DNA of 29,264 nt from Chthoniobacteraceae bacterium (GCA_031409655.1 JANNXQ010000247.1:1-29264), one strand, 5' to 3'. Positions 2,845-26,878 are shown, counted from the stretch's first letter. The notes: generated by a model from the sequence alone, not told the origin. Translations and numbers: made by a program.

Positions 2845-5800
2845 TCACGGGGTGAGATTGCGGGAGTAGATCGAGCGGAAGCGGACCTCGTCATCGGCTG
2901 AGTCGGCGGTGCCGCGATTGTTGACGTAACGCTCGATGATCGCCTGCTGGCGCTGCTCTCCGGTGATGACGAGGCGGCCCTGCGGGGTCTGCTTCAAGGC
3001 TTGGCCGATGGTGTAAATGCTGAAGACGCTGCCGCGCGCGGTGATGAGGCTGGCGACCTCCCGGACGAGGTCTTCGCTCTTTTCGCCGCCGTCCGCGACG
3101 CCCTTGATCTCGCAGATCTCTCCGGGGGTATCGAAGGCATTACTCGCGACGCCGATGGCTGGCTTCCAAGGGTAGCCGTAGATTTTTCCCGGGTTGGCCC
3201 CGGTCGCCAGCGTGCGGTTGTAAATGTTGGCCGCGATCTTTTCCGCGGCAGCCGGCGAAGTCAGGTGCGAGGCACCGGTGAGCAGGGCGACGAGGCCGCG
3301 GTCGCGCACCAGCTTGTCAAAGGGTTCGACGTGGGAGTTCACATTGACCCGACCGCCGACGCTGGTGCCGTGCGGGGTGAGGATGGGCTGCGGACCGGTG
3401 GCGGCGAGATTGGGCACGGTGAAAAGGTCCATGAAGGCCCAGTCAGGAAGCGTCTTTGAGTCTGCATAGTTATTCGGCTGAAGGCGGATGGTGCGCCAAG
3501 GGGTGCTGCCGACTTTCGCGTTGTTGCCGGTGTGGATGTAGCCGAGTTCGGCAATGGATGTGAGGCGGCCATCGTCTTGCGCCGGGCCATTGCTGGCCTC
3601 GCCTCTCGGCGGCGGCATGTAGAAGCTGAAATCGGAGACCTTGCCGTCCGCGTCGGTGTCTTGTTGCGGCCGGAGGTTGAGCGGGGCGCTGCCGACCGAG
3701 AACCAGGAATTGGTCCCTCCCAGAGTGTGTTTTCCGGTCTTGGTGAGCTTCCAGTCTTTGGGGTGGATGTTGCAGCGCGGGTCGTCGCTCTCCAGCGAGA
3801 CGGCGTCGTCGATCAAGACCTTGGACGGATCGCTGATGAGGTAGGGGATTGCGCCCACCTGGGTGCCGATGTTCACGCGCGGCCAGCGATTCAGTGGCGT
3901 GGCGAGCAGGCCGTCGGTGCCGGACTCGCCACGAAAGAGTACGCCGCGGATGTCGAGCGTCGTGTGTTTGGACCACGGGTTGTCGCGGTAGAAAAGCTTG
4001 GTCACGACGACGAACTTTCCAGGGTTGAGGATGGATTTATTCGGCCCGTCACCGTTGAGGTCGCCTTTCATGATCCGCACCGCATTGGTGCTGTGAGTTT
4101 GCATGAGCACCATCTGGCCATTCGGGCTGTGGAACCAATACTTCGACTTCTTCGGGTCGCGCGTTTCCGTCCAAGTGGCAAACCAGCCGACCGAGCCCGC
4201 TGCCGGCTTCACGCTGATATCGGGCACGAGGTCGATGCCCACGGCCTTGCCGTCTTTGACGAAGCCGTAATTCGGCGGGAGGTAAAACTCGGCTCTGAAG
4301 TAGGCGCGATGGAGCTTCATCGGCTGGCCGGCGGCATCGTTTGGCCAGCCGGCCGGCGGCGGCGTTGTGGGTGGGCCCACGGGGTTCAATTCCACATAGG
4401 TCTGCATCTCGGTGAGGTAAGGCGCGCGACAGACTCCCTGGTAGGAATTGGCCGCGCCGTAGGCGTAGGTCGGATGGATGGTGAACTTGTTCTTGTTGTC
4501 GCCCGTGGCATTGGACGGCCCGACGGCAAAGCGGAGCGGAGCGATGAGCAGCGTCGGGGATTCTTTGGCCCGGACGTAGTCGATGATATTCACCGCGATC
4601 TGGCCGAGCTGGCCGTCGCTGTCGGTGGTGCCGGGGTAATACTTTTCCTTGAAGCTGACGTCGGTGCCCGTGGGTGAAAGCGGCCACTTCTTTTCGCTGA
4701 TGTAGCGCATCAAGGTGCGGACTGCGGTGTCGAATTTATTGGGCAGGAGGATTGCTCCAGTCTTATCCGCGCTCCAGTCTGGCTGGCCGCCGGCGAGGTG
4801 TTCGAGGATGCCGGGGTCGAGCTGTTCCGGCAGACGGTCGTCGCGCAGGATGTCGAGGAATTTGCGCGCATAGGTGCCGTCCGGATTCTTCGGCACCAGC
4901 TCCCGCCGGGTGGTGAGCAGGATGCGATCTTCGCCAAAGAAGGTGGTGTCCGGGTCGTGGTTGTAGTGGGTGAGTTCAAATTTATTGAACTCGAGCATCC
5001 GGGTGAAGCGGGCGCGCTCCTCGTTATCGAGGATTTGCTCACTCGCCTGCCGGGCATCGGCGTAGGAGTTGAAATAGCGCGCGGGCGTTTCTGTGGTGAA
5101 GTGATGGACGACGTCGGCCATCGATTCGGTAAGCTGCCCGCCCCCCGGAAGCGTCAGACCCATGAGATTGATGCGGCTCGGGTGCGCCTCGTGCGCGAGA
5201 TTCGGGTTCTTCGAGTGAGCGGGATTGCGCTTCCAGGCGAGGTTGTAGTTGATCTTGCTGCTCTCGTCGTCGGCCCAGTAGGCAAAGCGCCCGACGATGG
5301 GGTTGGCCTGATCGGTGGTTCGCGGCGCCTCGATCGCGGCGCCCGTTTCGTCGAGTTCCTCGGTGCCGTCGGCGCGCACGTAGATCCAGCGCAGCCGCAT
5401 GGCCGCGGGCTCACCGGTGTCCTCGTCGCGCCGGTCGGTGATGAGGTAGGCGGGCGGGTTTTGATCGACCAGCGTTTGCACATTGAGATTTGGCGGCTGG
5501 AGCACGGGGTCGAGATCCGAGCGGGCGAGGAATGCGGGGCTCGGTGCGCCCGAGGAGAGCGGGATGATCGTCTGCAGTTGCTTCTGATCCGCCGGTGGAT
5601 CGGCGGCGACGATCAGCGCGCCAGGCTGGCTGATCCAGTTGCGTTTGCGGTTTTGAAAGACTTCGGGGAGTTCATTCAGTTTCTTTGGGGGATCGACGGT
5701 TTCGCGGCGCAGCGTGGCCACGGTGCGCTCGATGCCTTCGCGGGCGAAAGTGGCGGCCCGCGTGCGCTCGAAGTGCGTGCCTGCAACCGCGCGCTCGATG

Positions 5801-5916
5801 CGGACGCTATCGAGGTATCCAAGCGTCACGATGGTGCAGATGACGACGAAGAGCAGGGTGATGACGAGCGCGGAAGCAGGCGCGCGTCCGGTCTGGCGGG
5901 AAGGGTGGCGTTTCAT
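2845..5916 (-). CDS. vccA: Verru_Chthon cassette protein A-like (large protein with a PilX/GspK-like N-terminus)
   Basis: N-terminal SALVITLLFVVICTIV helix without Glu5, plus NWISQPG, VGRFAYWADDESSKINYN, GRVNVN and C-terminal ITARGSVFSIYTIGQAL. It is the last of four overlapping pilin-like genes. Confidence 0.75.
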   Translation of the reverse strand: MKRHPSRQTGRAPASALVITLLFVVICTIVTLGYLDSVRIERAVAGTHFERTRAATFAREGIERTVATLRRETVDPPKKLNELPEVFQNRKRNWISQPGALIVAADPPADQKQLQTIIPLSSGAPSPAFLARSDLDPVLQPPNLNVQTLVDQNPPAYLITDRRDEDTGEPAAMRLRWIYVRADGTEELDETGAAIEAPRTTDQANPIVGRFAYWADDESSKINYNLAWKRNPAHSKNPNLAHEAHPSRINLMGLTLPGGGQLTESMADVVHHFTTETPARYFNSYADARQASEQILDNEERARFTRMLEFNKFELTHYNHDPDTTFFGEDRILLTTRRELVPKNPDGTYARKFLDILRDDRLPEQLDPGILEHLAGGQPDWSADKTGAILLPNKFDTAVRTLMRYISEKKWPLSPTGTDVSFKEKYYPGTTDSDGQLGQIAVNIIDYVRAKESPTLLIAPLRFAVGPSNATGDNKNKFTIHPTYAYGAANSYQGVCRAPYLTEMQTYVELNPVGPPTTPPPAGWPNDAAGQPMKLHRAYFRAEFYLPPNYGFVKDGKAVGIDLVPDISVKPAAGSVGWFATWTETRDPKKSKYWFHSPNGQMVLMQTHSTNAVRIMKGDLNGDGPNKSILNPGKFVVVTKLFYRDNPWSKHTTLDIRGVLFRGESGTDGLLATPLNRWPRVNIGTQVGAIPYLISDPSKVLIDDAVSLESDDPRCNIHPKDWKLTKTGKHTLGGTNSWFSVGSAPLNLRPQQDTDADGKVSDFSFYMPPPRGEASNGPAQDDGRLTSIAELGYIHTGNNAKVGSTPWRTIRLQPNNYADSKTLPDWAFMDLFTVPNLAATGPQPILTPHGTSVGGRVNVNSHVEPFDKLVRDRGLVALLTGASHLTSPAAAEKIAANIYNRTLATGANPGKIYGYPWKPAIGVASNAFDTPGEICEIKGVADGGEKSEDLVREVASLITARGSVFSIYTIGQALKQTPQGRLVITGEQRQQAIIERYVNNRGTADSADDEVRFRSIYSRNLTP

Positions 5917-6902
5917 CGTGCGTTGGTGAGCTGCACCTCAGTGGCGTAGATGCGCAGACCGGGAAGCAGCGAAGCCCAGACCGCGCTGGATTGCGCGAGC
6001 AGGCGGCAGCCTTCCTGAAACTGCGCCGCATCGCGGATTTCCGAGGAACGAGTGAGCGCGCGCAGGGACGCTCCAACGAGGTCGAGGCGCGGGGCGTGTC
6101 GGGAGTCGATCTGGGCGAGAGAGATTCGCACCGTGGCCGGCAGGTGGCGTCGCTCGGTCCTTTCCCCGATGGCGCCCGAGGGGTCGTGGAAAGTGTGCGT
6201 GTAGTCGTAGCCGGTCCGGGAATCGTAGCCGCGCGGCAGCTCCTTGCCATCCAGGCCAGTGGCGCGGACCCAGAGGCCGAGCACATTGTCGCCAAAGAGT
6301 CCGGTGTAGCCGTCGGCCCTGCGCGCGGGTGCGACGCTGTCGAGCAGGCTCTTGCTCAGCCAGGCTTTCGGGTCCACGGGATCGTAGATGCGGAAGTCCG
6401 GGTTGGCGATGATCTGCCCGGGATTCTCGGGATCTTCCCGCGAGGGATTGACGAAGAAGCGGCAGAGCGTGGGCCGCGACGCCGCGGTCGGGGTCGCCGA
6501 GACCCACTTCACAAAATAACCGATCTCCGCGATCTCACCGAGACTCGTCTCGGTCGCGAGCGGCGCCTGCCAGAAGATGGCGTCGGCGTGCCGGTATTCG
6601 TCCGGCACCTGTTTCGCCGGAGGATTGATGACCAGTTGAAGATTCGACTGGCCCATTTTGCTTTCACCTTCGATGGGCAGCATGGCGGCCTGCAGTTCGA
6701 CGGCGATGAAGTCCGCCAGCGCCCGCACATTTCTCCGCTGCTCGATCTGCCCCTCGCCGCGCATCCACGTCCGACTCACCTGATCAAACACGGTGCTGAG
6801 CATAAGCACCAGCAAAGTGAAGACGGCCATGGACACGAGCAGCTCCACAAGCGTGAAACCGCTGCGGCGCGCCAGTAGTTCAGTAGCGCGAGACGCTCGC
6901 AT
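5913..6902 (-). CDS. vccC: Verru_Chthon cassette protein C-like, with prepilin-type N-terminal cleavage/methylation motif (PilW-like)
   Basis: RSG|FTLVELLVSMAV type III signal; IFWQAPL and EIGYFVKW motifs; 4-bp overlap with the A gene. Confidence 0.75.
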   Translation of the reverse strand: MRASRATELLARRSGFTLVELLVSMAVFTLLVLMLSTVFDQVSRTWMRGEGQIEQRRNVRALADFIAVELQAAMLPIEGESKMGQSNLQLVINPPAKQVPDEYRHADAIFWQAPLATETSLGEIAEIGYFVKWVSATPTAASRPTLCRFFVNPSREDPENPGQIIANPDFRIYDPVDPKAWLSKSLLDSVAPARRADGYTGLFGDNVLGLWVRATGLDGKELPRGYDSRTGYDYTHTFHDPSGAIGERTERRHLPATVRISLAQIDSRHAPRLDLVGASLRALTRSSEIRDAAQFQEGCRLLAQSSAVWASLLPGLRIYATEVQLTNAR

Positions 6903-7407
6903 CGAGTCTCCTCTGATTGGGCCGCCGCTCCGGGGTTTGGCTCGCCACGACCGGCCAGGTGAAAAGCAACTTCACACGCAGACGATTGAAGACACCCTCT
7001 TCGCGCGCCTGGGTCTGCAGATCGGGCAGCTTGTGGACGAGGCATTCGTAATGCGCGGCGGGATCATCCGGCACGGTCTCGAAAGGCAGCGGCATCCCTT
7101 CGTGCGTGAAAAGGTAGCGCGTGGGCGGCGGGGCCTCGGCATCGTTCGCCGGCGTAGCATCGTGGGCAGCCCACGGTTCTTCGCTCCAGAGCGCATCGAA
7201 GGGGCGCGCCCGCAAATCTTGCAACACCCGGGTGGACATCGTCGCGAGCACCGTCTCGTCGCCGGCCGTGCCATTCGCGCCGAGGCCGACGCCGAGCACC
7301 CCGACGATCGAGACGAGCGCCACTGCCGCGACGGCGAGAGCGAGCGAGAGTTCGATGAGGCTGAAACCGTGGCGCGCTGTCTGGCTGGAAGAGCGTGCTG
7401 CCTTCAT
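6880..7407 (-). CDS. vccB: Verru_Chthon cassette protein B-like (PilV-like minor pilin)
   Basis: RHG|FSLIELSLALAVAAVALVSIVGVLGVGL; YLFTHEG and FTWP motifs; 175 aa. Confidence 0.75.
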   Translation of the reverse strand: MKAARSSSQTARHGFSLIELSLALAVAAVALVSIVGVLGVGLGANGTAGDETVLATMSTRVLQDLRARPFDALWSEEPWAAHDATPANDAEAPPPTRYLFTHEGMPLPFETVPDDPAAHYECLVHKLPDLQTQAREEGVFNRLRVKLLFTWPVVASQTPERRPNQRRLDASVSRY

Positions 7408-8066
7408 GGGCGGAAGACTTTCGTGATGCCGGTCGCGCCGAGGATCGTGAGATCGTAGTAGTTCGCCGGCTGGCCTCCGGCTCCGCGCCGGGTGTGTGTG
7501 ACCAGGCCATGGTTTAGGACGCCTTCGACGATCCGGATCTGCGCCGGATGCTGGGGATTGAGCAGCCCGCCGCCGGGAAGAAAAATGCGGGCGGCGTAGC
7601 CCGGCACATCGAGGACGTCACGCCCCTGATAGACGAGCGGCGGGTTTGACTGCTGCGGCGGACCGCTCAGAAATGGGAATGGACGTGGGGAGTTGAGGAG
7701 GAAAGTCGAGGCCAGAGGCGGTGACGGATCGACCACGATACCGGTGGGCAGGGTCTTCCAATCCGTGATCTGCGACCACCCCTGACCGGGGCGATATTCC
7801 GCCACGGTGAAGGCGCGGAAATCCTCCTCCGTCCCTTGCGCTCCGAGGAGCACGAGCGCCGCCATGGAATTCCGGGCGATTGCCGTCTGGCGGGCAAGGG
7901 CGGCGAGATTTGCCACCATATTCCCGCCCGCCGCGAGGGCTGTGGAGCGTCCGTAGCTGCTCACCGCAGGCACGGCAACCGCGACCAGGGTCGAGACGAT
8001 GGCCAAGGCGGCCAGCATCTCCACCAAAGAAAACGCCCGCGGGATGGGGGCATGCTTGGGGGTCAT
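7404..8066 (-). CDS. vccD: Verru_Chthon cassette protein D-like (FimU/GspH-like minor pilin)
   Basis: RA|FSLVEMLAALAIV; LARQTAIARN (GspH/FimT-like); C-terminal NYYDLTILGATG. Confidence 0.75.
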   Translation of the reverse strand: MTPKHAPIPRAFSLVEMLAALAIVSTLVAVAVPAVSSYGRSTALAAGGNMVANLAALARQTAIARNSMAALVLLGAQGTEEDFRAFTVAEYRPGQGWSQITDWKTLPTGIVVDPSPPLASTFLLNSPRPFPFLSGPPQQSNPPLVYQGRDVLDVPGYAARIFLPGGGLLNPQHPAQIRIVEGVLNHGLVTHTRRGAGGQPANYYDLTILGATGITKVFRP

Positions 8067-11097: not shown

Positions 11098-11125
11098 CCC
11101 CCTGCCATTGCGAATGCCTTAACTC

Positions 11126-11319
11126 AGCCGGAACGATACCGCTGGAAGGGTGCGGCGTGGTTGGAAAACGCAGAGACGCAGAGACGCGGAGCACGCAGAG
11201 TTCGGGATGGAATTCGGACTGTGCGCTGTGCTGCGTTCCCGACCCTTTGCGAACCCGGCGTCTCTGCATCTCTGCGTTTTGCAAACCGCACCTCCCATTT
11301 CACCCGGATCGTTCCGGCT
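11126..11319. mobile_element. MITE-like palindromic element (194 bp)
   Basis: 12-bp perfect terminal inverted repeats AGCCGGAACGAT/ATCGTTCCGGCT. Inner arms GGTGCGG/CCGCACC, and AAAACGCAGAGACGCAGAGACGC (11165-11187) vs GCGTCTCTGCATCTCTGCGTTTT (11258-11280, one mismatch). Confidence 0.6.
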
Positions 11320-11345
11320 TAGCACCATTCGGGGCAGGGCGTGCT

Positions 11346-12521
11346 TCAGCGCTTCAGCGCATCGAGCAGCGATCCGCGGCCGGCGGCTTGCGTGCGCCAG
11401 AGCGGGCCATTGAGGTCGCAGTTGGGAAAGGGTGCGCCATCGCTCTTCGGGGTCTTCACATTGGCGAGCCGGAAGAGCGGCAGCTTTTCGGACTTCGTCC
11501 CGGATGGCTGCGCCATGAGAACCGCCCAAAAGCGCCCGCCCGGCCGCTCACCGATCACCACTTCCATGTCGGCCCAGGAGGTGCCGCTGAGGTGGACGCT
11601 TTCGCCGCGGATGTAACCCTTGCGCGGAAAGCCGGTGTATTGCGGCGGGATGACTTCTTCGGGCTGGAGCGCTGACGACGCGGCCCACGAGGCATCGAGC
11701 ACGAGCTTGCCGTTCACCTTGACGAGCAGCACGTCGTCGGCGGCGCCGATGAAGTGGTAGTTGCCTTCCTTCGGCGGCTGCACCTTGCCGCGATACACGG
11801 CCAGCCATTGCGCGGGCTTTACATTCTTTTCCACGTCGAACGCCTTCGGCGCCTCATCCGCGGACATATTGGGAATCATGAATTGCGCCGCCGACAGCGT
11901 GGCGGGTGCCTTGAAATATTTTGCCAGCTCGCTCTCGCGCATGCCGCCATCGACCCACTGGCGCACGATGCCGGTGTAGTTGTTCGCGTTCACGCCCGAC
12001 GCCTTCTTATCCTGCGTCTGCTTGAGATCGTAGAATGTGCCCGTGAGTCCGGTCCCCGCGCCGCGGAAGCCAAAGAAGCTCATCCCGCCTCCTCCTCCGC
12101 CGCCCCCGCCCATGCCACTGCCCATGCCGGCTCCGAAGCCCATGCCGGTGCCGATGCCCGCGCCACCCATCCCGGCCATCATGCCGGGGACCACGTTATT
12201 CGCGCTGGAGATGGTCGGCAGATCGGGCAGCGCGACCTTGGCGATCCCGGCGCTGACGATGCGCTTGGCCTGCGGCGGTGCGCCGCCGGTTTTCTTCTTC
12301 TGCGCCATCGAGACTTTGTGTTCCAGCGCACGCTTGCTGGGGTTCACCGACGGCGGCCCGCCTTGGAAGGTCACCTTCCGTTTCGCCTGGATGCGCTGGA
12401 CGATGAAGTAAGTCGCGCCCACGCCAAAGAGCAGATGCACGACGATGCTCACGAAGAGAAACTTGCTCGCGAGGATCTTCGCCCAAAGACCGCGACGTGG
12501 GTGGGAGCCGGAGTTACTCAT
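11346..12521 (-). CDS. TonB/TolA-type anchored protein with a C-terminal PA14-like domain
   Basis: TM helix FVSIVVHLLFG (SxxxH) and a Gly/Met linker, followed by GLTGTFYD...YRGKVQPPKEGNYHFIGAADDVLLVKVNGKLVLD (PA14 pattern). Confidence 0.7.
   Translation of the reverse strand: MSNSGSHPRRGLWAKILASKFLFVSIVVHLLFGVGATYFIVQRIQAKRKVTFQGGPPSVNPSKRALEHKVSMAQKKKTGGAPPQAKRIVSAGIAKVALPDLPTISSANNVVPGMMAGMGGAGIGTGMGFGAGMGSGMGGGGGGGGGMSFFGFRGAGTGLTGTFYDLKQTQDKKASGVNANNYTGIVRQWVDGGMRESELAKYFKAPATLSAAQFMIPNMSADEAPKAFDVEKNVKPAQWLAVYRGKVQPPKEGNYHFIGAADDVLLVKVNGKLVLDASWAASSALQPEEVIPPQYTGFPRKGYIRGESVHLSGTSWADMEVVIGERPGGRFWAVLMAQPSGTKSEKLPLFRLANVKTPKSDGAPFPNCDLNGPLWRTQAAGRGSLLDALKR
12160..12485. repeat. 326-bp direct repeat, copy 1 (constant N-terminal module)
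   Basis: Ungapped match to 13264-13589 (12 mismatches by hand count) and to 14299-14624 (about 17). Confidence 0.95.
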
Positions 12522-12530
12522 TTCCTCACG

Positions 12531-13625
12531 TTACTTCACTTCCTTGAATTCGCCGCCGTTTCGCTTGGCGAGGTCGCGCATAAATTCTCGTGCGTTATCG
12601 AGTTCCTCAGCAGCCTTGCCCTTGCCGGTGTCGCCCAATTTGTAGGCGAAGGTGTTGATCCGGGTGGCAGGGGATTTGGCGGCGATCTGGCTCGCGTCGG
12701 TCGATGGTTTTTGCAGGCCGGCGATGCGCTTGAGTAGCATCTCCAGCAAGGCATTTTGGTCGCCTTTGAAACCAGGCGGCTTGGTGGGCATGCCGTCGGA
12801 GACCCAGATGATCATGTCCGGCTTCAATTCGAACGCGCGGTCCACGGCCAGATCCATCCGCGTCCCAGCGTGGCCGGCAAAGTTGACTTTGCCGCCGCCT
12901 TCCAGCGCCGTCGCCACGCTGTAGTCCTTGATAAATTGCTCGGCGCTTTTCACGTTCTCCGGCGTGCCTGGGACCAACTTTTCCTGGAAGGTCCAGAGCT
13001 TCGGTGCATACAGGATTATGCCGAAGCGGCTGGCGGGATTGAGCAGCTTGAGGGCTTTGAAGACTTCCTTCTCCAACTCGCGGTAGGTCGCGGGACTTTT
13101 ACCCCCTCCGGCCACGTTGGACTGCGAGGAATCGAGGACGAAGAGGATGTTCTTCGCCTGCGAACGCATCCCGAAGAAGTTGATATTGGAGAGTCCACCG
13201 CCCCCGCCGCCACCCATCCCGCTCCCCATGCCAGCGCCGAAGCCCATGCCGGTGCCGGTGCCTGCGCCACCCATCCCGGCCATCATGCCGGGCACGACGT
13301 TATTCGCGCTGGAGATGGTCGGCAGATCGGGCAGCGCGACCTTGGCGATCCCGGCGCTCACGATCCGCTTGGCCTGCGGCGGTGCGCCGCCGGTTTTCTT
13401 CTTCTGCGCCATCGAGACTTTGTGTTTGAGCGCACGCTTGCTGGGGTTCACCGACGGCGGCCCGCCTTGGAAGGTGACCTTTCGTTTCGCCTGGATGCGC
13501 TGGACGATGAAGTAAGTCGCGCCCACGCCAAAGAGCAGATGCACCACGACGCTCACAAAGAGAAACTTGCTCGCAAGGATCTTCGCCCACAGCCCGCGAC
13601 GTGGTTGGGTGCTGGAGTTACTCAT
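12531..13625 (-). CDS. TonB/TolA-type anchored protein with a C-terminal vWA domain
   Basis: Same N-terminal module (SVVVH). vWA MIDAS: ILFVLDSSQS...GT...IIWVSDG, then RINTFAY and LAKRNGGEF. Confidence 0.8.
   Translation of the reverse strand: MSNSSTQPRRGLWAKILASKFLFVSVVVHLLFGVGATYFIVQRIQAKRKVTFQGGPPSVNPSKRALKHKVSMAQKKKTGGAPPQAKRIVSAGIAKVALPDLPTISSANNVVPGMMAGMGGAGTGTGMGFGAGMGSGMGGGGGGGLSNINFFGMRSQAKNILFVLDSSQSNVAGGGKSPATYRELEKEVFKALKLLNPASRFGIILYAPKLWTFQEKLVPGTPENVKSAEQFIKDYSVATALEGGGKVNFAGHAGTRMDLAVDRAFELKPDMIIWVSDGMPTKPPGFKGDQNALLEMLLKRIAGLQKPSTDASQIAAKSPATRINTFAYKLGDTGKGKAAEELDNAREFMRDLAKRNGGEFKEVK
13264..13589. repeat. 326-bp direct repeat, copy 2
   Basis: See copy 1. Confidence 0.95.
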
Positions 13626-13634
13626 CTTCCCACT

Positions 13635-14669
13635 TCACTTGATGTCTTTGAATGCACCGCCGTTATCCTTCGCGAGCTTGCTCATGAAATCGCCACCCGC
13701 GTCTGCCTCGTAGGCAATCGCGTTGATAGTGACCTTCCGTGGCATCGCTTTCTGCCACTCATCGACGTTCTTGAGGATGGCCGGCGGCCTGGCGTCGGTC
13801 GGTTCACCGTCGGAGACGAAGAAGATGAGCGCCGGCTTCAACTCAAAGGCGCGTTTGAGCGCCCCGTTGCTCCCAGTGCCCATGTGGCGCTTGCCCTTCT
13901 CGGATTGCCACACCGTCCTGTTCCCACCCTTCACGCCGTTGGGGAGTGCATTGCACGGACTGTAGCTCTTGAGCCAGTTGATCGCGCGCTGTTTGTCCGC
14001 AGATCCGGCGCTGACCATGGTTTCGCTGAAGACGTACGGCTCGCGAGAGAAGGCGATGAGGTTGAGCTTCGAAGCGGCCGAGAGGCCGTTGATCGCCTTG
14101 ATCGTTTCCTTCTCGAGCCGGTCGTAGGAGTCCCGGTCTTTTTTCCCAGAGATCATGCTGCCGGAGATATCGATCACGAAGACGGTACTCGGCGCCGCCC
14201 CGCGGAAGCCGAAGAAGGACATGCCACCACCACCGGCGCCGCCGCCACCCATGCCACTGCCCATCCCGCTGCCAAAGCCCGTGCCGGCACCGAAGCCCGC
14301 GCCACCCATCCCTGCCATCATGCCGGGCACCACGTTGTTCGCGCTGGAGATGGTCGGCAGATCGGGCAGCGCGACCTTGGCAATCCCGGCGCTGACGATG
14401 CGCTTGGCCTGCGGCGGTGCGCCGCCGGTTTTCTTCTTCTGCGCCATCGAGACTTTGTGTTCCAGCGCACGCTTGCTTGGGTTCGCCGACGGTGGCCCGC
14501 TCTGGAAAGTCACCTTCCGTTTCGCCGAGATGCGCTGGACGATGAAGTAAGTCGCGCCCACGCCAAAGAGCAGATGCACCACGATGCTCACGAAGAGAAA
14601 CTTGCTCGCAACCAGCTTCGCCCAGAAGCCACGGCGGGAGCCGGTGTCGTTCGGAGACGGCGGGTTCAT
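13635..14669 (-). CDS. TonB/TolA-type anchored protein with a C-terminal vWA domain
   Basis: Same N-terminal module (SIVVH). vWA MIDAS: VFVIDISGSM...GT...IFFVSDGEP, then INAIAY and LAKDNGGAF. 4-bp overlap with exbD. Confidence 0.82.
   Translation of the reverse strand: MNPPSPNDTGSRRGFWAKLVASKFLFVSIVVHLLFGVGATYFIVQRISAKRKVTFQSGPPSANPSKRALEHKVSMAQKKKTGGAPPQAKRIVSAGIAKVALPDLPTISSANNVVPGMMAGMGGAGFGAGTGFGSGMGSGMGGGGAGGGGMSFFGFRGAAPSTVFVIDISGSMISGKKDRDSYDRLEKETIKAINGLSAASKLNLIAFSREPYVFSETMVSAGSADKQRAINWLKSYSPCNALPNGVKGGNRTVWQSEKGKRHMGTGSNGALKRAFELKPALIFFVSDGEPTDARPPAILKNVDEWQKAMPRKVTINAIAYEADAGGDFMSKLAKDNGGAFKDIK
14299..14624. repeat. 326-bp direct repeat, copy 3
   Basis: See copy 1. Confidence 0.95.
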
Positions 14670-15115
14670 TCTTCGTCGCTCACGGTGAAGGTGACGTTTT
14701 CGATCTGCGCCACGGCGAGCGCGTCGAGCACATCGACGGTGCGGCTGTATTTCGCCTCGGGTTCGCTGACCACGGTCACGAGGGTGGGCGCTTTGGCGGC
14801 GTCGCTGCCTTGCTTGAGCCGGAGCAGGGTGCCGCGGAGTTGCGTCATGTCCTTGCTCGTGGGTGTGTCCATCGGCTCGTCGTTCAGCAGCACCTCGCCG
14901 TTCTCGGCGATGTTGATGATGATCTCGTCCACGAAGTCCGTCGGCCCACTCGTCTCCGCGGTACCGGGCAGTTTGGTGTTCAGCTCGCGTTCCACTTTCA
15001 CCGCGCCGGCCATCACCATGAAGAAGAGCATGATGACGAAGACCACGTCGATCATCGGCGCGATCTGGAAGCCGAGGTTGCCCTCGCCGCCGACGTTGGG
15101 ATCGAAGCGTTTCAT
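14666..15115 (-). CDS. exbD: ExbD/TolR family biopolymer transport protein
   Basis: IAPMIDVVFVIMLFFMV with the essential TM Asp; AKYSRTVDVLDAL. Confidence 0.9.
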   Translation of the reverse strand: MKRFDPNVGGEGNLGFQIAPMIDVVFVIMLFFMVMAGAVKVERELNTKLPGTAETSGPTDFVDEIIINIAENGEVLLNDEPMDTPTSKDMTQLRGTLLRLKQGSDAAKAPTLVTVVSEPEAKYSRTVDVLDALAVAQIENVTFTVSDEE

Positions 15116-15119
15116 CGGC

Positions 15120-15578
15120 TCAATTCCGGTTCGCAGCCGAGAAGGAGATGTCGGTGACGCCGGCCTCGGCGGCGGCGTTCATCGCGCGGGAGACGCTCAT
15201 GGCACTCGCTTCGCGGTCGCCGCGGATCACGCAGCGAAAAGTCGGGTTTGAGCCCTGGGTGATCTTGGTCTCGCCGAGTTTCTTCGCCGCGGCGAGCGCC
15301 TTGGTCAGCTCAGGCAGCTCGGGGTAAGCGCGATCGTCCATGGTGTAGGTCGCTTTCTTGGCGGCCGGATCCCACTTCACGTTCACGATGGCTTCGGCGC
15401 GCTGGTTGTCTTTCTTCAGCGAATTCGCCGAGACCGGCAGCTCGATGGTCTTGTCCACCTTCAGCACCTGCGCGCTGGTGATGCTCATGAAAAAGATGAG
15501 CAGCACGAGCAGCACGTCGATCATCGGCGCGATCTGAAACTCCGGTTCGCCGTCTGCGCCTCCGCCTCCGCCGGCCAT
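15120..15578 (-). CDS. exbD: ExbD/TolR family biopolymer transport protein
   Basis: IAPMIDVLLVLLIFFM; IELP; VIRGDREA...AGVTDISF. Confidence 0.9.
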   Translation of the reverse strand: MAGGGGGADGEPEFQIAPMIDVLLVLLIFFMSITSAQVLKVDKTIELPVSANSLKKDNQRAEAIVNVKWDPAAKKATYTMDDRAYPELPELTKALAAAKKLGETKITQGSNPTFRCVIRGDREASAMSVSRAMNAAAEAGVTDISFSAANRN

Positions 15579-15620: not shown

Positions 15621-16460
15621 TCACGCTTGAGCGGGGGTGGTTTCGCCTTCCGCGTGGTGTTCGCCGGTCCACCACTCGGGATCGGCGGCGTAGAGTTCCT
15701 CGTCGCCGATGTGCGCCCCGGCGATCTTGTCGTAAGGCATCTTGCGGAGCAGTCCGGCCATGGTGTCTTGGATGTCGTGCAGCACTTTGGCCGCGCGATT
15801 GCGCAGATAGTAAAACGCACTGAACGCCGGGATCGCGATGAACAGGCCGGAGGCCGTCGCCACGAGCACTTCCCCGATGGCCGCGGAGAGCGACGAGGGA
15901 TCGCCGATGCCCTGGCTGCCGAGCACGGCGAAGGCCTTGATCATTCCCGTGACCGTGCCGAGCAGCCCGATCATCGGCGTACAAACACCGATGACCGAGA
16001 GGTAACTAATCGAGGTTTGCATCCGCGAATTTTCCTTCGCCATCTCGGCCATGATGCCTTCCTCGACGGCGGTCTTGCCTTCGCCGAGCTGGCTCACCGC
16101 CACCCGGCAGACGTTGGTAAAGGCGGACGAGTTCTCTTTGCAGTAGTTGTAGGCATTGACGTATTTCCCCGCGCGGAAGAAGCCGCGCACCGCCTCGACG
16201 TGCTCCGGGGGGAGCAGCTTCTTGGGGCTCGTGACGCGGATGATGCCGTCGCCGATGAGATAGAGCGTGAGCACCGAGCAGAGGCCGATGGGGATCATCA
16301 CCCAGCCGCCTTCCTTGATTTGTCCCCACAATGATTTGTTGTGGACGGCGGGCGCGGCGTCGGCCGCGGGCGGTGCCTCCGCGGCGTGGAGGCAGGCACC
16401 GGTGAGCAGCGCGCTGGCGGTGAGCGCGGCGAGGAGTTTGGTGTTGGCTTTGATGTTCAT
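15621..16460 (-). CDS. exbB: MotA/TolQ/ExbB proton channel protein
   Basis: GGWVMIPI, PMIGLLGTVTGMIKAF and EVLVATASGLFIAIPA; cleavable signal-like N-terminus. Confidence 0.92.
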   Translation of the reverse strand: MNIKANTKLLAALTASALLTGACLHAAEAPPAADAAPAVHNKSLWGQIKEGGWVMIPIGLCSVLTLYLIGDGIIRVTSPKKLLPPEHVEAVRGFFRAGKYVNAYNYCKENSSAFTNVCRVAVSQLGEGKTAVEEGIMAEMAKENSRMQTSISYLSVIGVCTPMIGLLGTVTGMIKAFAVLGSQGIGDPSSLSAAIGEVLVATASGLFIAIPAFSAFYYLRNRAAKVLHDIQDTMAGLLRKMPYDKIAGAHIGDEELYAADPEWWTGEHHAEGETTPAQA

Positions 16461-16481: not shown

Positions 16482-17416
<935 letters not shown>

Positions 17417-17420
<4 letters not shown>

Positions 17421-20290
17421 ACCGCCCCCCAATCCACGAGCATCTTCGCCGCTCGCTTAGTCTCCGGAAAATCCCGCAGCTTCTCATTGCGCATCATCTC
17501 CTTGAGGTGGCCCACGGCCTCGGGGCGTTTGCCGAGTTTATCAAAGCAATCCGCACTCCGCACATACGCCTTGGCCGCCCACGGCAGGAATTTCTGATAG
17601 GCCACAAACACGCGCTGGTAGTGGGCGACGGCTTCGGCCCAGCGGCCTTGCTGCGCCTCAATCTCGCCGAGGTAAAAAATCGCTTGCGCCGTCGATTCGC
17701 CGCGCCACTCGCGGATCCCCGCCACTTGCTCAAAGCCCTTCTTTGCCTCGGCATACTGTTTGAGTTCGAGCTGCGCGCGCGCCCGTCCGATCGTCGCCTC
17801 CTTGATCTTCGAGGCCGCGATCTCATCCGCGGCGTGGGTGAAAAGTTCGAGCGCCTTTTTGGGATCACCTGCCGCGAGCGCGAGTTCGCCGAGGCCGACG
17901 TAGGCATAGTCGAGGTAGTCGCTTTTCGGATAATCCTCGCGCAAATCTCCGAACATCCTGGCCGCTTTGTCGCGGTCGCCTTTGGCCAGCGCGTAGTCCC
18001 CGACGCTGGCGAGCAGCACCGGGCTCAGGGACTCGGGCGGAAAACGGTTCGCCAGTTCGATGAACAGATCCGGCGTCTCGGCTTCGCGCTTGAGCAGCTT
18101 CAGGAGTTCGATCTGGGTATAGACCAGCCGCGCTTTGCCCGTGTTGTTCGCAATTTCGTCGAGCGGTGCGACCTGCTTCTTCAGCTCCGCCACAGCATCG
18201 TAGGGTGGCAGCGGCGCCGGGGTTTCGGGCGGGGGTAAAGGTGCGGCACCGGGCGCGGCAGTCGGCGCGGGTGGCGGTGTTGCGGGCCGCGGACGCTTCG
18301 AGCAGAGCTGCGCGAGTTGCTGGAGCAGTTGCTCGACGGCCTCGCGCTTCGGCTCGTTCAGGTAACGCTTGAGCTGCTCGACCAGGAACGTCTTCGCCTC
18401 CTCGGTCTTACCCTCGCGCGCCTTCGCCTTGCCGATCCAAAACATCGCCGCGACCACCGTCGGATGATCCGGCTTCGCCTGCACGAACTCCTCGAACATC
18501 TGCGCGACCTCGGGCCACTTGCCCTGCTTCTGGAGTTGCTTGCTTGCCTCGAAGATCGCGTAGTTCAGCACCTCGTCGCTGGTCGCGCGCTGATACGACT
18601 GCTGGTACGCTTCCGCCGCCTCCTCCGTCCGGCTCTCCGCCGCGAGCGCATCGCCGAGCAGGGAAAAAACCTCACCCGCGATGAGATCGTTCGGATACGC
18701 CTGCTGCCAGGCCTGGGCATCGGCGATAACCTCGTTGTAGAGCGACGCCGCGTATTTGCAGACCATCACGCGGTAACCTGCATCGCCCGCAAAGGCGCCC
18801 CCTTTATACTCCTGGAGATAGGCATTCAGCTTACCCAGCGCCTCTTCGTATTTCCCCTGAAAGAGCAGGGTCAGCGCCTCGCGATACGCAGCCTCCTCGG
18901 CAAAGCCACCCTTCGGAAAATCCTTCACATATCGCGCGTATTGCTTCCGCGCTTCCTCGAACTCGCCCTGCATGAACTGCGCATTCCCCAGCAGGAAACG
19001 CATCTGCTCGCGGAACTCACTGTCCGGCTGCTGCTCGAGCATCATGCCGAAGAAGGACACCGCACTTTTCGGATCGTTATTCTGTAACGCGGACGCACCC
19101 TTGAGATAACCGACGGTCGCGGCGTTCGGCCCTTTCGGATACTTCGCGAGATACTCGTCGCAGAGCTTCAGCGTGCGCGCGGAGCGATTCAGATCGGCGT
19201 AACACACCAGCGTCGAATAGAGCGCCGGTTCGCTTTCCTTCGCCTCGGGGTGCTCGGTCAGCAGCCGGTCAAAGGCCACGATCGCCTCCCACTTCTTATC
19301 CCAGTCGTACCAGACCTTGGCATTGCGGAAGAGGATCGCCGGCCAGTAGTCGGGCAGCTTCGAGAATTCCTCGAGCAACTGCTTCGCCTGCTCCTGCTGC
19401 AGCTCGATCTCCCGGTTCGCGCCCGTCGCCGCCAAAAAGGCCTGCGGATTGCCTCGCGCGGCGTCGAGATTGGCCTGCATCCGTTTGTCCATCGCCGCGA
19501 TGCGCGCGCCTTGGAAAGCGAGCACCTGGTCGCGCGTCCGCACCACCCGGTAAGCCGCCAGCGCCTGGGTGTAACTCTTCTTCTCCGCGAGTTCGTCGCC
19601 GAGCTTCACGGTCAGCGCATTCAGCGCGACCACGTTGTCCACCAGCGCCACGCGGGCGTGCAGGGTGTTGATCAGGGCGAGCACTTTGTCGGACTCGTTC
19701 TTCGTCAGGTAAAGTTCGGCGAGTGTCACCGCGCTCGTCGCCTGCACCGGCGATTTGATCTCCGGCTGGATGAGCTTCTCGATGACCCGGATCTGGTCGT
19801 CGGGCCGGTTGAGCTGCTTGAAGCATTCCGCCTGCGCCGCCAGCGCCTGATCGCGCAGGGCCGGCGCCGACTCCAGCGCCGCTAAGGCCTTCGCCGCACC
19901 GTCGTAGTCCTTGCTCAGAAACATCGCCCGCGCGCTGGCCAGCCGCGCTTCCCCGACCCGCTCCGCCTGCGGATACTGCGTGAGGTAGGTCTTAAAGGTC
20001 GCGATCGCCTTGGCGTAGTTCTTCCCATTGAAGTACGCCGCGCCGAGCGTGAAGAAGAGCGGTCCGATCTTCGCTCGCTCGACCGGATCGGTAATCGTCG
20101 CAATCACCTTCTCGAGCCCCTCCGCCGCTTCCGTCCACTTGCCCGCATTGAACGCCGCTAGGGCCGCATTGTGCATCGCCGCGAGTTCCATCGCCGCCGA
20201 TTGCTGTAGCGCCGGCTGCTGCGCCGATCCAGGCGCGATCCAGGCCAGGAGCGCTGCGGCAAAGAGCGGGGGGAGTGAAGTGAGGCGCAC
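17417..20290 (-). CDS. Large exported TPR-solenoid protein (about 957 aa)
   Basis: Many TPR/BamD-like repeats (YLTQYPQ, LLTEHPE, YLAKYPKG, YVKDFPKG, LREDYPKS). Probable GTG start at 20290 gives a signal peptide (MRLTSLPPLFAAALLAWIAPGSA|QQ). Internal Pro/Ala linker. Confidence 0.8.
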
Positions 20291-24241: not shown

Positions 24242-26878
24242 CTACCGGTTCTCGACTTTGAACCGCTTCGCCACGATCGCCGTGGCTTCCTCCAGTCCCG
24301 TCTTCGCAGGCAGGCCGTAGTAGATGGAGACGTAGGTGTGGTCGCGGGCAGCGTGCGCGCTGAGGGCGTAGATGTTTCCCTCCAGATGGCGAAAGACTTT
24401 GTAGGTCAGCGCGTAGATCGCGCCGTCGGCATTGTGCGCGGTCTCGAAGCGCAGGCATTGCTTCCCGGCGCGCGTTTCCGTGACGGTGAAGCGGCCGTCG
24501 ATCCGCGGCAGGTTCGCTTCGTCGGTGTCGGCGACGTGGCGTCGGGCGCGGATGGCGTCTTCGACGATCGCGGGCAGATCCCGGCGGAGCGGCTTTTCGC
24601 TAGGGGCGAGGTGGAAGAAGTCGAGCGCGAGGCCGTGGTTCATGGCGGAGAAAAGATGCGCCTGCCGGAGATCGACCCCGCTGTGCCAGAGCGCACCGGC
24701 GATCGACGCAGCCACCCCCCGATAGTCCCGCGCGGCGACGCCGAGCATGATCGAGGTGCCGTCGGGGATGAGGGCGGCCTTCGGTCCAGCGGGGTCCGCG
24801 GGATCTGCCAGCCGGATGAGATGCGACCCAAAGCGGATGGCGTGCAGACCATACGAGCCGCTGAAAAAATCCTCGCCGATGTCGCGCAGGATGGTGAGTT
24901 CCTCCTCCCCGTAGCCGTCGGCCATCAAGGCGCGGGCGCGATCCGGCCGGGGGCGAAAGGTCGCCGAGGACTTGGCGTAAAGCTCGCGGATGTTCCACCA
25001 ACGCACCGGCTCGGCCACGGCGGATTCCCAGTCCGCGCGATCCGCACAGGTAAAGACGAAGAGCGCCCGCAACCGCTGTTCATCGCGGCAGCGCTGCGCG
25101 AAATCCAGCACCCGCTCGTCGTCGTTGACGCCAGCCTCGGCCACTTCCTTAAAAGTGCGCCGGTTCGCCACCAGGAACCGCACGATCTCCAGGGTCGCGG
25201 GGGTGAATTCGCACTCGGATTCGTAAGGCGTGAAGTAGTCCGGCAGTGAGATGCCGGAAAAGCCCGAGGCATGGCGCTCGTGCAGCGGACGCGTGAGGTC
25301 CGCGCGGGCAGCCACATCGTCTGGGGTCAGCGGGAGTCTCTTGGTCTTGAGCGCGAGTTTCACCGCCGCACGGTGGTCCGGATCGAGCAATGCTGCCTCG
25401 ATCGCCCGCATCGCGTAGTCATCCTCAGCGGCGGTCTTTTCCAGAGAGACAGAGGTCGCGAGGAGTTGGGTGCCCTCGATCACGTATTGCTCGAGGACGT
25501 GCATCTTCTGCCGCTCAAGTGCGCCGCGCAGCGACTGGCGCTCACTCATCACCCGGCCATCGAGCGAGGACTCAAATTTCCCGTAGCCAGAAAAGAGCCG
25601 ATCCTCAGCGCCGTCGATCTGGGCGAGGAACTCGAAGGACTTTGCGAGGCTGCCACGCGGCTCGTAGAAGAGCTCCGAAACCTCCGGCACGCGGACCAGC
25701 CAATCACCGGCATTGCGAAAGGTGGCGTGCAACTCCGCCAGATCGATCTCCACACCGTAACGCTGCGAGGCGAGGAGCAGCGAGAGCGCCGCGCGGCTTC
25801 GTTCCCGCGCCGATTGACCCTGGTCGGAGGTCGAGTGGCGGAGGCCGTTGCTCCCGTAGATGATGGCACTCCCCGGCACCACTGCGCGCCCGGCACCCAG
25901 TTCGCGTTCGATCACCCCCTTCGTAAATACGGCCACCCGCCGCCTCGCGGAGAGCAGGCGCGAGCGCACCACATCGGCAAACTCAAACCGCGTCCCCACA
26001 TCGCTCTGCGGCCCGAGCATTTCTCCGTAAGCCACCGAATCCTCAAACCTCAATAGGTCTTCGGGATGATTGCCCTCCTTACCCCCACGGCCACCGGGCG
26101 GACGACGGAGATGCACCCAGGCCCGGATGCGCAGCAGGAAATCATAAGCCGCCAGGTCGCGCGGATCCTCCAGCGTGCGATAGACCTCTTGGCTGTGGCT
26201 GAAGGTCTTTCCGGCGAGCGTCCAGATCCCCCCGAGAAAAACGCGCAGACCGTCATTCTTGATATCAAAGCGATCCAGCCGTTCGCTCCCGGCACCGGCG
26301 GCCTCCCACTGATCTTCCCAAAATCCGCGCAGATGCAGGAAGTGCTCAAACGGATCGTAAGTCGCCCGGATGCGTTCGCGGAAGCGCTCCGTCAGCCCCC
26401 CCGGATCGAACACCGCGCGCATGTCGAGGAAGGAGTTGAGCTGCTTTTCCGCCAGGGCCGGTACGTCATCAAGGCCAAAGGGCAGCGCGGCGTAGCCGAA
26501 GCCATACTGCTCGCGGAATTCCTCCGTGTGCAGGGTCTGCCGCTGGAGTTCGAGCAGGAAGGCATTGCCCTCGATGGCCTCATCGAAAAGAAACGCTAAG
26601 TCCAGGTCCGAACACGGCGTCACCTCCGCGCGACCCGTCCCGCCGAGCGCGACCACCGCAAAGGGTTTCGAGTACCCGTGCATTCGCAGTTGCGCCTCCG
26701 CCCAGTGGGCGATCAGAGCTGTATGGATGGCCGTACGCGCGTTGACCAGCGCCCGGCCATTCTCGAGTTCCGCGCCACGGATCAGGGCATCGTTTTCGGC
26801 GATCAGCCGACGATACGCCTCCAGCGGCCCGCCTTCGCGGAGCACTGCGAAGACGTGAGCTTCGTCTGCGACGATCAT
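24242..26878 (-). CDS. Divergent GlnD-like [protein-PII] uridylyltransferase
   Basis: VALGGTGRAEVTPCSDLDL (NTase); DIKNDGLR; AYDFLLRIRAWVHL; LRALFVFTCAD; ACT-like RDYRGVAASIAGAL. 878 aa, a GlnD-like size. Confidence 0.7.
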   Translation of the reverse strand: MIVADEAHVFAVLREGGPLEAYRRLIAENDALIRGAELENGRALVNARTAIHTALIAHWAEAQLRMHGYSKPFAVVALGGTGRAEVTPCSDLDLAFLFDEAIEGNAFLLELQRQTLHTEEFREQYGFGYAALPFGLDDVPALAEKQLNSFLDMRAVFDPGGLTERFRERIRATYDPFEHFLHLRGFWEDQWEAAGAGSERLDRFDIKNDGLRVFLGGIWTLAGKTFSHSQEVYRTLEDPRDLAAYDFLLRIRAWVHLRRPPGGRGGKEGNHPEDLLRFEDSVAYGEMLGPQSDVGTRFEFADVVRSRLLSARRRVAVFTKGVIERELGAGRAVVPGSAIIYGSNGLRHSTSDQGQSARERSRAALSLLLASQRYGVEIDLAELHATFRNAGDWLVRVPEVSELFYEPRGSLAKSFEFLAQIDGAEDRLFSGYGKFESSLDGRVMSERQSLRGALERQKMHVLEQYVIEGTQLLATSVSLEKTAAEDDYAMRAIEAALLDPDHRAAVKLALKTKRLPLTPDDVAARADLTRPLHERHASGFSGISLPDYFTPYESECEFTPATLEIVRFLVANRRTFKEVAEAGVNDDERVLDFAQRCRDEQRLRALFVFTCADRADWESAVAEPVRWWNIRELYAKSSATFRPRPDRARALMADGYGEEELTILRDIGEDFFSGSYGLHAIRFGSHLIRLADPADPAGPKAALIPDGTSIMLGVAARDYRGVAASIAGALWHSGVDLRQAHLFSAMNHGLALDFFHLAPSEKPLRRDLPAIVEDAIRARRHVADTDEANLPRIDGRFTVTETRAGKQCLRFETAHNADGAIYALTYKVFRHLEGNIYALSAHAARDHTYVSIYYGLPAKTGLEEATAIVAKRFKVENR

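Follow-up and report, generated by a model that had tools for sequence, protein, structure and literature searches.

The window analysed here is the whole of a 29,264-nt contig from a Chthoniobacteraceae bacterium (GCA_031409655.1 JANNXQ010000247.1:1-29264), part of a metagenome bin (G000; 6.85 Mb, 306 contigs, 5.3% contamination). Its minus strand carries a compact operon that runs from a large and a small tetratricopeptide repeat (TPR) gene through exbB, exbD1 and exbD2 to three tandem genes, g1, g2 and g3, which are the subject of this report (Table 1). The start of g1 overlaps the stop of exbD2 by 4 nt, and g1, g2 and g3 are separated by gaps of 9 nt. Each of the three encodes a single hydrophobic helix with a TonB/TolA-type Ser-x3-His motif, followed by a stalk of ~110 residues that is basic, contains 22% Gly and 7% Pro and is, judging from this composition, probably disordered, and then by a C-terminal head.

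Helix and stalk are encoded by a 326-bp module that is in frame within an intact reading frame in all three genes. The copies align without gaps, that of g3 differing from g2 at 12 positions (96.3% identity) and from g1 at 17 (94.8%), in line with the 12 and about 17 given in a preliminary description of the locus, and the remaining pair, g2 and g1, differing at 23 (92.9%). The differences had been called mostly synonymous, which is true of g2 and g3 (10 of 12 in synonymous codons) but does not extend to the pairs with g1 (9 of 17 with g3 and 14 of 23 with g2). Searches of G000 by blastn, tblastn and profile returned these three copies and no fourth. At fourfold-degenerate sites the window stalks differ at 9/62, 6/59 and 10/59 positions (10–17%), compared with the ~33–35 differences (~56%) that the codon usage of ten genes in the window predicts for saturation (p 1e-10 to 1e-13). 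Because the equally conserved stalks of relatives differ far more, at 37–58% of fourfold sites between the window stalks and all nine stalks of two related genomes (G081 and G083), the likeness within the window does not stem from selection alone.

The heads are of two folds. The g1 head is a vWA domain by Pfam match and by a fold search with its predicted structure (pLDDT 90), and the g2 head is assigned to the same fold through its identity to the g1 head and its DxSxS motif. Both keep DxSxS and SDG, the MIDAS-type DISGS of g1 lying at 14157–14171 and the DSSQS of g2 at 13119–13133. Rather than sharing similarity at the level of motifs only, as first thought, the two are homologous along their full length (219 columns, 33% identity, E 7e-27). 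The g3 head does have the different fold that had been proposed for it: Pfam recognizes PA14 (26.8 bits, cut-off 24), and although a sequence search of the PDB with a profile of this head gave 0 matches, the fold was then settled by structure searches, in which the predicted PA14 fold (pLDDT 87) matched sugar-binding PA14 domains in Foldseek (E 1e-7) and aligned with 6m8m at Z 13.2 (rmsd 3.1, 162 aligned). An Asp-Asp pair at 11733–11747 is presumably akin to the calcium site found in PA14 lectins. NCBIfam holds no specific model for g1–g3.

The histories of stalks and heads disagree. A tree built from the 19 closest of 41 listed stalk genes groups the window's three stalks as a clade (100/99), and 16 states that these three have in common are missing from the seven stalks compared. 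The nearest head of each gene lies in another genome, namely in gene 2 of locus L042 for g1 (60% amino acid identity), gene 2 of L043 for g2 (83%) and gene 3 of L042 for g3 (80%), and approximately unbiased (AU) tests reject joining each window stalk to the stalk of its head orthologue (nominal p 1e-75, 2.5e-4 and 6.3e-4). Between g2 and its L043 counterpart, DNA identity is 87.5% in the head and 77.8% in the stalk, and synonymous divergence differs likewise, with 19/89 fourfold differences in the head and 25/50 in the stalk (Fisher p 6.5e-4). Four operon genes of the same genome pair differ at 142/381 fourfold sites; the g2 head is closer than these (p 0.004), which suggests that it was imported later. 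In sequence, g2 resembles g3 until ~13240 and L043 from ~13194, so that the switch falls within the Gly-rich tract.

The g1 stalk looks patchy. Nine of its 14 private sites keep the stalk state of its head orthologue, L042 gene 2, whereas five PA14-type stalks compared match g1 at only 3–5 of the 14. Within one 24-nt patch, 5/5 private sites, silent sites included, match the stalk of the head orthologue, and this patch adjoins a 95-nt run that is identical to g3. The numbers are small, but the pattern fits patchy conversion better than simple recent copying. The PA14 head itself also looks mosaic, since that of L042 gene 3 tracks L043 gene 3 to about residue 280 and is 40–52% identical thereafter, while being 64–84% identical to g3 throughout. 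An independent case is found at L023 in genome G007, where tandem stalks are 99.4% identical in DNA and the heads 37% identical in protein; the four G007 stalks form no supported clade among the 19 rows of the tree (97.4/74), and only their pairwise values are used here.

Table 1. Features of the operon, with positions counted from the first nucleotide of the window.
Feature	Position	Strand	Remarks
g1, 344 aa: membrane helix, stalk and vWA head type a	13635..14669	-	
g2, 364 aa: membrane helix, stalk and vWA head type b	12531..13625	-	
g3, 391 aa: membrane helix, stalk and PA14-fold head	11346..12521	-	
326-bp module in g1	14299..14624	-	Ser-x3-His at 14574-14588
326-bp module in g2	13264..13589	-	Ser-x3-His at 13539-13553
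326-bp module in g3	12160..12485	-	Ser-x3-His at 12435-12449
g2 Gly-rich tract, probable crossover interval from window-type stalk to L043-type head	13195..13240	-	
exbD2, ExbD/TolR family	14666..15115	-	membrane Asp23 invariant, 20/20 aligned
exbD1, ExbD/TolR family	15120..15578	-	membrane Asp21 conserved
exbB, MotA/TolQ/ExbB proton channel family	15621..16460	-	
small TPR protein	16482..17270	-	start codon not fixed; open frame to 17432
large TPR protein, YbgF/CpoB-like repeats	17417..20275	-	start not fixed; open frame to 20833

The stalk was found in 78 of 151 family genomes (E < 1e-15). Among the relatives, operon order is conserved and the gene after exbD2 bears, depending on the genome, a vWA, a PA14 or an alpha-barrel head, the last with a squalene-cyclase-like repeat. 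The heads carried by the stalk are not a fixed set: the window has the order vWAa-vWAb-PA14, L042 barrel-vWAa-PA14, L043 barrel-vWAb-PA14 and L093 vWA-PA14 (loci L046–L048 and L051, duplicates of L021–L023 and L025, were left out). Among the best 150 of 635 representatives, 81 heads are PA14-like, 26 vWA, 10 barrel and 7 other, and 26 are too short to call. Stalk, close ExbD2 and close large-TPR orthologues were not found in three congeners of G000 (G001, G002 and G003; 74–97% complete), whose leuC is 92–93% identical to that of G000, and the closest operons lie in another genus; the operon was therefore either gained by G000 or lost by its congeners. Scattered stalk copies in relatives adjoin lectin, polysaccharide-lyase and PEP-CTERM genes, which weakly suggests glycans as targets, and at L052 and L054 genes similar to Verru_Chthon cassette protein A occur near such copies.

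The explanation that we consider best overall, at a probability of roughly 0.7, is that g1–g3 are alternative single-pass partners of one ExbB-ExbD1-ExbD2 proton motor, on which they are predicted to dock, and that recombination likely maintains the similarity of the anchor-stalk DNA within the genome, with heads swapped at the Gly-rich junction. Past recombination as the source of the stalk/head pattern is well supported by the sequence comparisons, and ongoing conversion moderately so. The near-identical stalk would act as a homology arm that fits incoming or neighbouring heads to the resident motor; its constancy may be both needed by the motor and useful for recombination. The membrane Ser-x3-His would dock on ExbB in the fashion of TonB and TolA, and the stalk would transmit force into the periplasm, where the PA14 head may grip a glycan and the vWA heads a protein partner via their metal site, such that g1–g3 pull on, or are pulled by, the targets held by their heads. 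What the machine does is a more tentative matter. For that step alone we would put somewhat less than even odds on pulling, driven by the proton motive force (PMF), on glycans and proteins of the periplasm or the outer membrane as targets, with the variety of heads widening the range.

Docking is suggested by the motif itself. Ser-x3-His is that part of the SHLS motif which makes contact with ExbB in TonB and TolA structures, as described in the available portion of PMC12215075, and in the best 150 of 635 representatives the His is retained in 148 and the Ser in 138. The motor-docking role that the preliminary description gave to the stalk fits this conservation, the synteny and the operon described in the accessible part of PMC12204202, with the binding being a prediction. 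As for a motor box of the kind that binds the ExbD/TolR dimer, the stalk family has a conserved E-H-x-V-x-M segment, whose likeness to the alternating D-box pattern of PMC10907165, in the portion of that paper at hand, is one seen by eye only. A complex prediction for the stalk with the periplasmic domains of ExbD1 and ExbD2 scored 0.00, which is evidence neither way.

Several observations weigh against this interpretation. The Leu and final Ser of SHLS are not kept, being replaced by Ala and Val/Ile, and the Gly-rich basic stalk is unlike the stiff linker of TonB. The sites counted are few and the genomes related, so that the p values given for stalks and heads overstate the case. Across nine multi-copy genomes, the nearest stalk lies in the same genome for only 14 of 28 copies, a count that depends on the closeness of the sampled relatives: this holds for 3/3 copies in G000, 4/4 in G007, 4/5 in G081, 2/2 in G086 (marginal) and 1/3 in G082, but for 0/4 in G083, 0/3 in G097, 0/2 in G080 and 0/2 in G114. 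Barrel-head stalks are orthologous between genomes (86–96% nucleotide identity), and the tandem pair of L093 is only 83.7% identical. Finally, a rearranged form of the window array was not demonstrated among the matches listed for contigs of four related sequencing runs, all from one study and one of them (X1) possibly the source sample. Candidate joints (for example 13214 to 14227) had a short side of 20–38 letters at 88% likeness and were not used. Gene conversion or recombination, as first proposed, is partly supported, by the discordant histories, the break in the Gly tract and the other head sets that relatives carry on the stalk, and the repeats might also let the array expand or contract, but homogenization is not general in the family.

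A simpler history, in which a window-type stalk was duplicated twice recently and fused to imported heads in one-off shuffling with no continuing conversion, is unlikely but retains a real share of the probability. It would explain the stalk clade, the short N-terminus without a sterile alpha motif (SAM) domain that g2 and g3 have in common, and the breakpoint in the Gly tract, and it sits well with the several relatives that lack homogenization and with the failure to demonstrate population variants among the contigs compared. Against it stand the head-orthologue patch of g1, with its silent sites, directly beside the run identical to g3, and the recurrence of the pattern in G007, G081 and G082.

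About as unlikely is that these proteins are motor-attached receptors, whose heads would detect ligands in the periplasm and pass the signal on by way of cytoplasmic domains instead of mainly pulling on a target, an idea compatible with the swapping of heads. Of the best 150 of 635 representatives, 31 carry SAM at the N-terminus, and the stalk proteins of G081, G083 and G007 begin with a cytoplasmic SAM and a Pro-rich linker (L060:1579-11928, L077:5339-10627 and L021–L023). In 3 of 14 proteins scanned, a Ser/Thr kinase stands in front of the helix and stalk. Most of the same 150 representatives, however, have short N-termini, and the window copies have almost no cytoplasmic part, with no SAM found in G000 by a search that recovered positive controls in relatives. 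The three kinase-bearing proteins (P0013, P0016 and P0026, two of them with SAM) continue into a Ser-x3-His helix, stalk and PA14-like head and are possible motor-coupled receptor kinases. All Pfam SAM matches in G081, G083 and G007 fall on stalk genes or on one neighbour. Directly behind the array at L060 of G083 lies a SAM, Pro-rich, membrane-helix and CBM6-like gene without a stalk (L060:5698-6876), and the same locus holds a broken stalk fragment (L060:17923-18135), flanked on one side by a second pair of exbD genes and on the other by the large TPR gene, with the His replaced and the frame stopping after ~65 codons.

Among systems already described, the closest is that of Williams-Jones et al. 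2025 (PMC12204202), who predicted vWA force transducers in PVC bacteria, gave their function as unknown, placed them behind TPR, tolQ-like and two different tolR-like genes, and modelled docking through the His. In its accessible part, this account agrees with g1 and g2 in the membrane helix with a conserved His, the ~100-residue linker, the C-terminal vWA and the position downstream of the TPR, tolQ-like and two tolR-like genes. The PA14 head makes g3 a variant rather than a vWA member. Since the operon type has been described, motor coupling is not new. The section on these transducers does not mention PA14 or alpha-barrel heads, tandem arrays, stalk homogenization or SAM/kinase N-termini, and "PA14" has 0 occurrences in the available text and supplement. 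PMC12204202 is also the sole paper on this operon that we found in open-access text, where exchangeable PA14/barrel heads, tandem arrays with homogenized stalks and SAM/kinase fusions were likewise not found. What is new here is the exchange of heads.

TonB-ExbBD and TolA-TolQR, as far as the available portions of PMC12215075 and PMC10907165 describe them, share with the window an ExbB/ExbD-family motor with a membrane Asp and a Ser-x3-His partner helix. The window differs in the replaced Leu and Ser of SHLS, in having two different ExbDs and in a linker that is Gly-rich and not Pro-rich, and g1–g3 end in vWA or PA14 heads in place of the TonB/TolA C-terminal domain. Separate TonB_2 genes and TonB-dependent receptors are encoded on other contigs of G000.

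The Agl-Glt machinery of Myxococcus, in the accessible parts of PMC11761067 and PMC11135422, likewise pairs a motor of three genes with more than one membrane transducer, and it has TPR partners as well as cytoplasmic interaction domains on its transducers (FHA and GYF there, SAM in the relatives here). We regard it as quite improbable that the window encodes a surface-adhesion or gliding machine of this kind with heads acting as adhesins, even though its one TolQ-like and two TolR-like proteins, its several transducers and its TPR proteins find parallels in AglRQS, GltG/GltJ and GltD/E (available text of PMC11761067), the best fold matches of the g3 head are PA14 domains of adhesins, and such a reading is suggested in the part of PMC12204202 at hand. 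A tether of ~110 residues holds the heads at the inner membrane, and the vWA is here part of an inner-membrane protein, not a separate lipoprotein. The operon contained no recognizable gene for an outer-membrane barrel or a lipoprotein adhesin, and neither Glt homology nor an outer-membrane Glt complex was seen, though no search with Glt proteins was made.

In cassette systems such as polymorphic toxins, a conserved N-terminal region serves as homology arm and C-terminal domains are exchanged by recombination. The analogy with these, drawn in the preliminary description, holds for the conserved N-terminal region and the exchanged C-terminal domains but is otherwise loose: the window has three intact genes packed closely into a single operon and not silent cassettes, the heads are binding folds and not toxins, and immunity genes, silent cassettes and a recombinase were not recognized in the window. 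With regard to silent or orphan cassettes in relatives, the broken stalk fragment of L060 is the one such piece observed.

That the near-identity reflects collapsed or chimeric repeats in the metagenome bin, a concern raised at the outset, is very improbable. The fragmentation and contamination of G000 invite it, and none of the assembled pieces listed spans the array, but the copies differ from one another at 12–23 sites, all in frame. Among the matches listed, separately assembled contigs of run X1 agree with 11970–12222, 12411–12660, 13520–13998 and 14555–14840 with zero differences, bridging four stalk-flank junctions, and a contig of run X2 matches 13520–13998, bridging one. Another assembly contains a full-length g3 that is 91% identical, and the same pattern appears in G007, a genome in 5 contigs. 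Old whole-gene duplicates with stalks kept alike by purifying selection and GC-biased codon use, as the family-wide conservation of the stalk protein and fourfold sites of 85–94% G+C could suggest, are refuted by the fourfold divergence of relatives and the saturation test.

A promoter scan gave 0 sites, and terminator-like sites were at about the level of shuffled sequence. Elsewhere in the window, a 78-nt imperfect inverted repeat lies downstream of g3 (11123–11322), and inverted arrays of a 7-nt unit lie between the two TPR genes (17312–17404); both are possibly REP-like. A four-gene pilin-like cluster (2845–8066) resembles Verru_Chthon cassette proteins A–D, all below curated cut-offs, and a divergent GlnD-like uridylyltransferase (24242–26878) is far under curated cut-offs. 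A second exbB-exbD-exbD set, ~40% identical to that of the window, is present on another contig of G000 (C214; L040:6957-10575), with no stalk-family gene recognized behind it.

Returning to shared anchors with exchangeable heads, known TonB and TolA proteins have a pulling domain of a single kind at their end, whereas here the motor-facing half is constant and the heads are vWA, PA14 or alpha-barrel. If the predicted docking is true, ExbBD-type motors would pull glycans and varied proteins, beyond TonB boxes, and the array offers a natural set of chimeras with which to find the targets of the vWA transducers of PVC bacteria. A connection between PMF-driven motors and signalling is hinted at by the members fused to SAM and kinase domains. 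More speculatively still than the pulling function itself, one proton motor may serve a whole set of interchangeable heads for gripping glycans and proteins, which would be traded between Chthoniobacteraceae genomes and refitted to the resident motor through recombination in the homogenized stalk, with the SAM and kinase members acting as motor-coupled mechanoreceptors.

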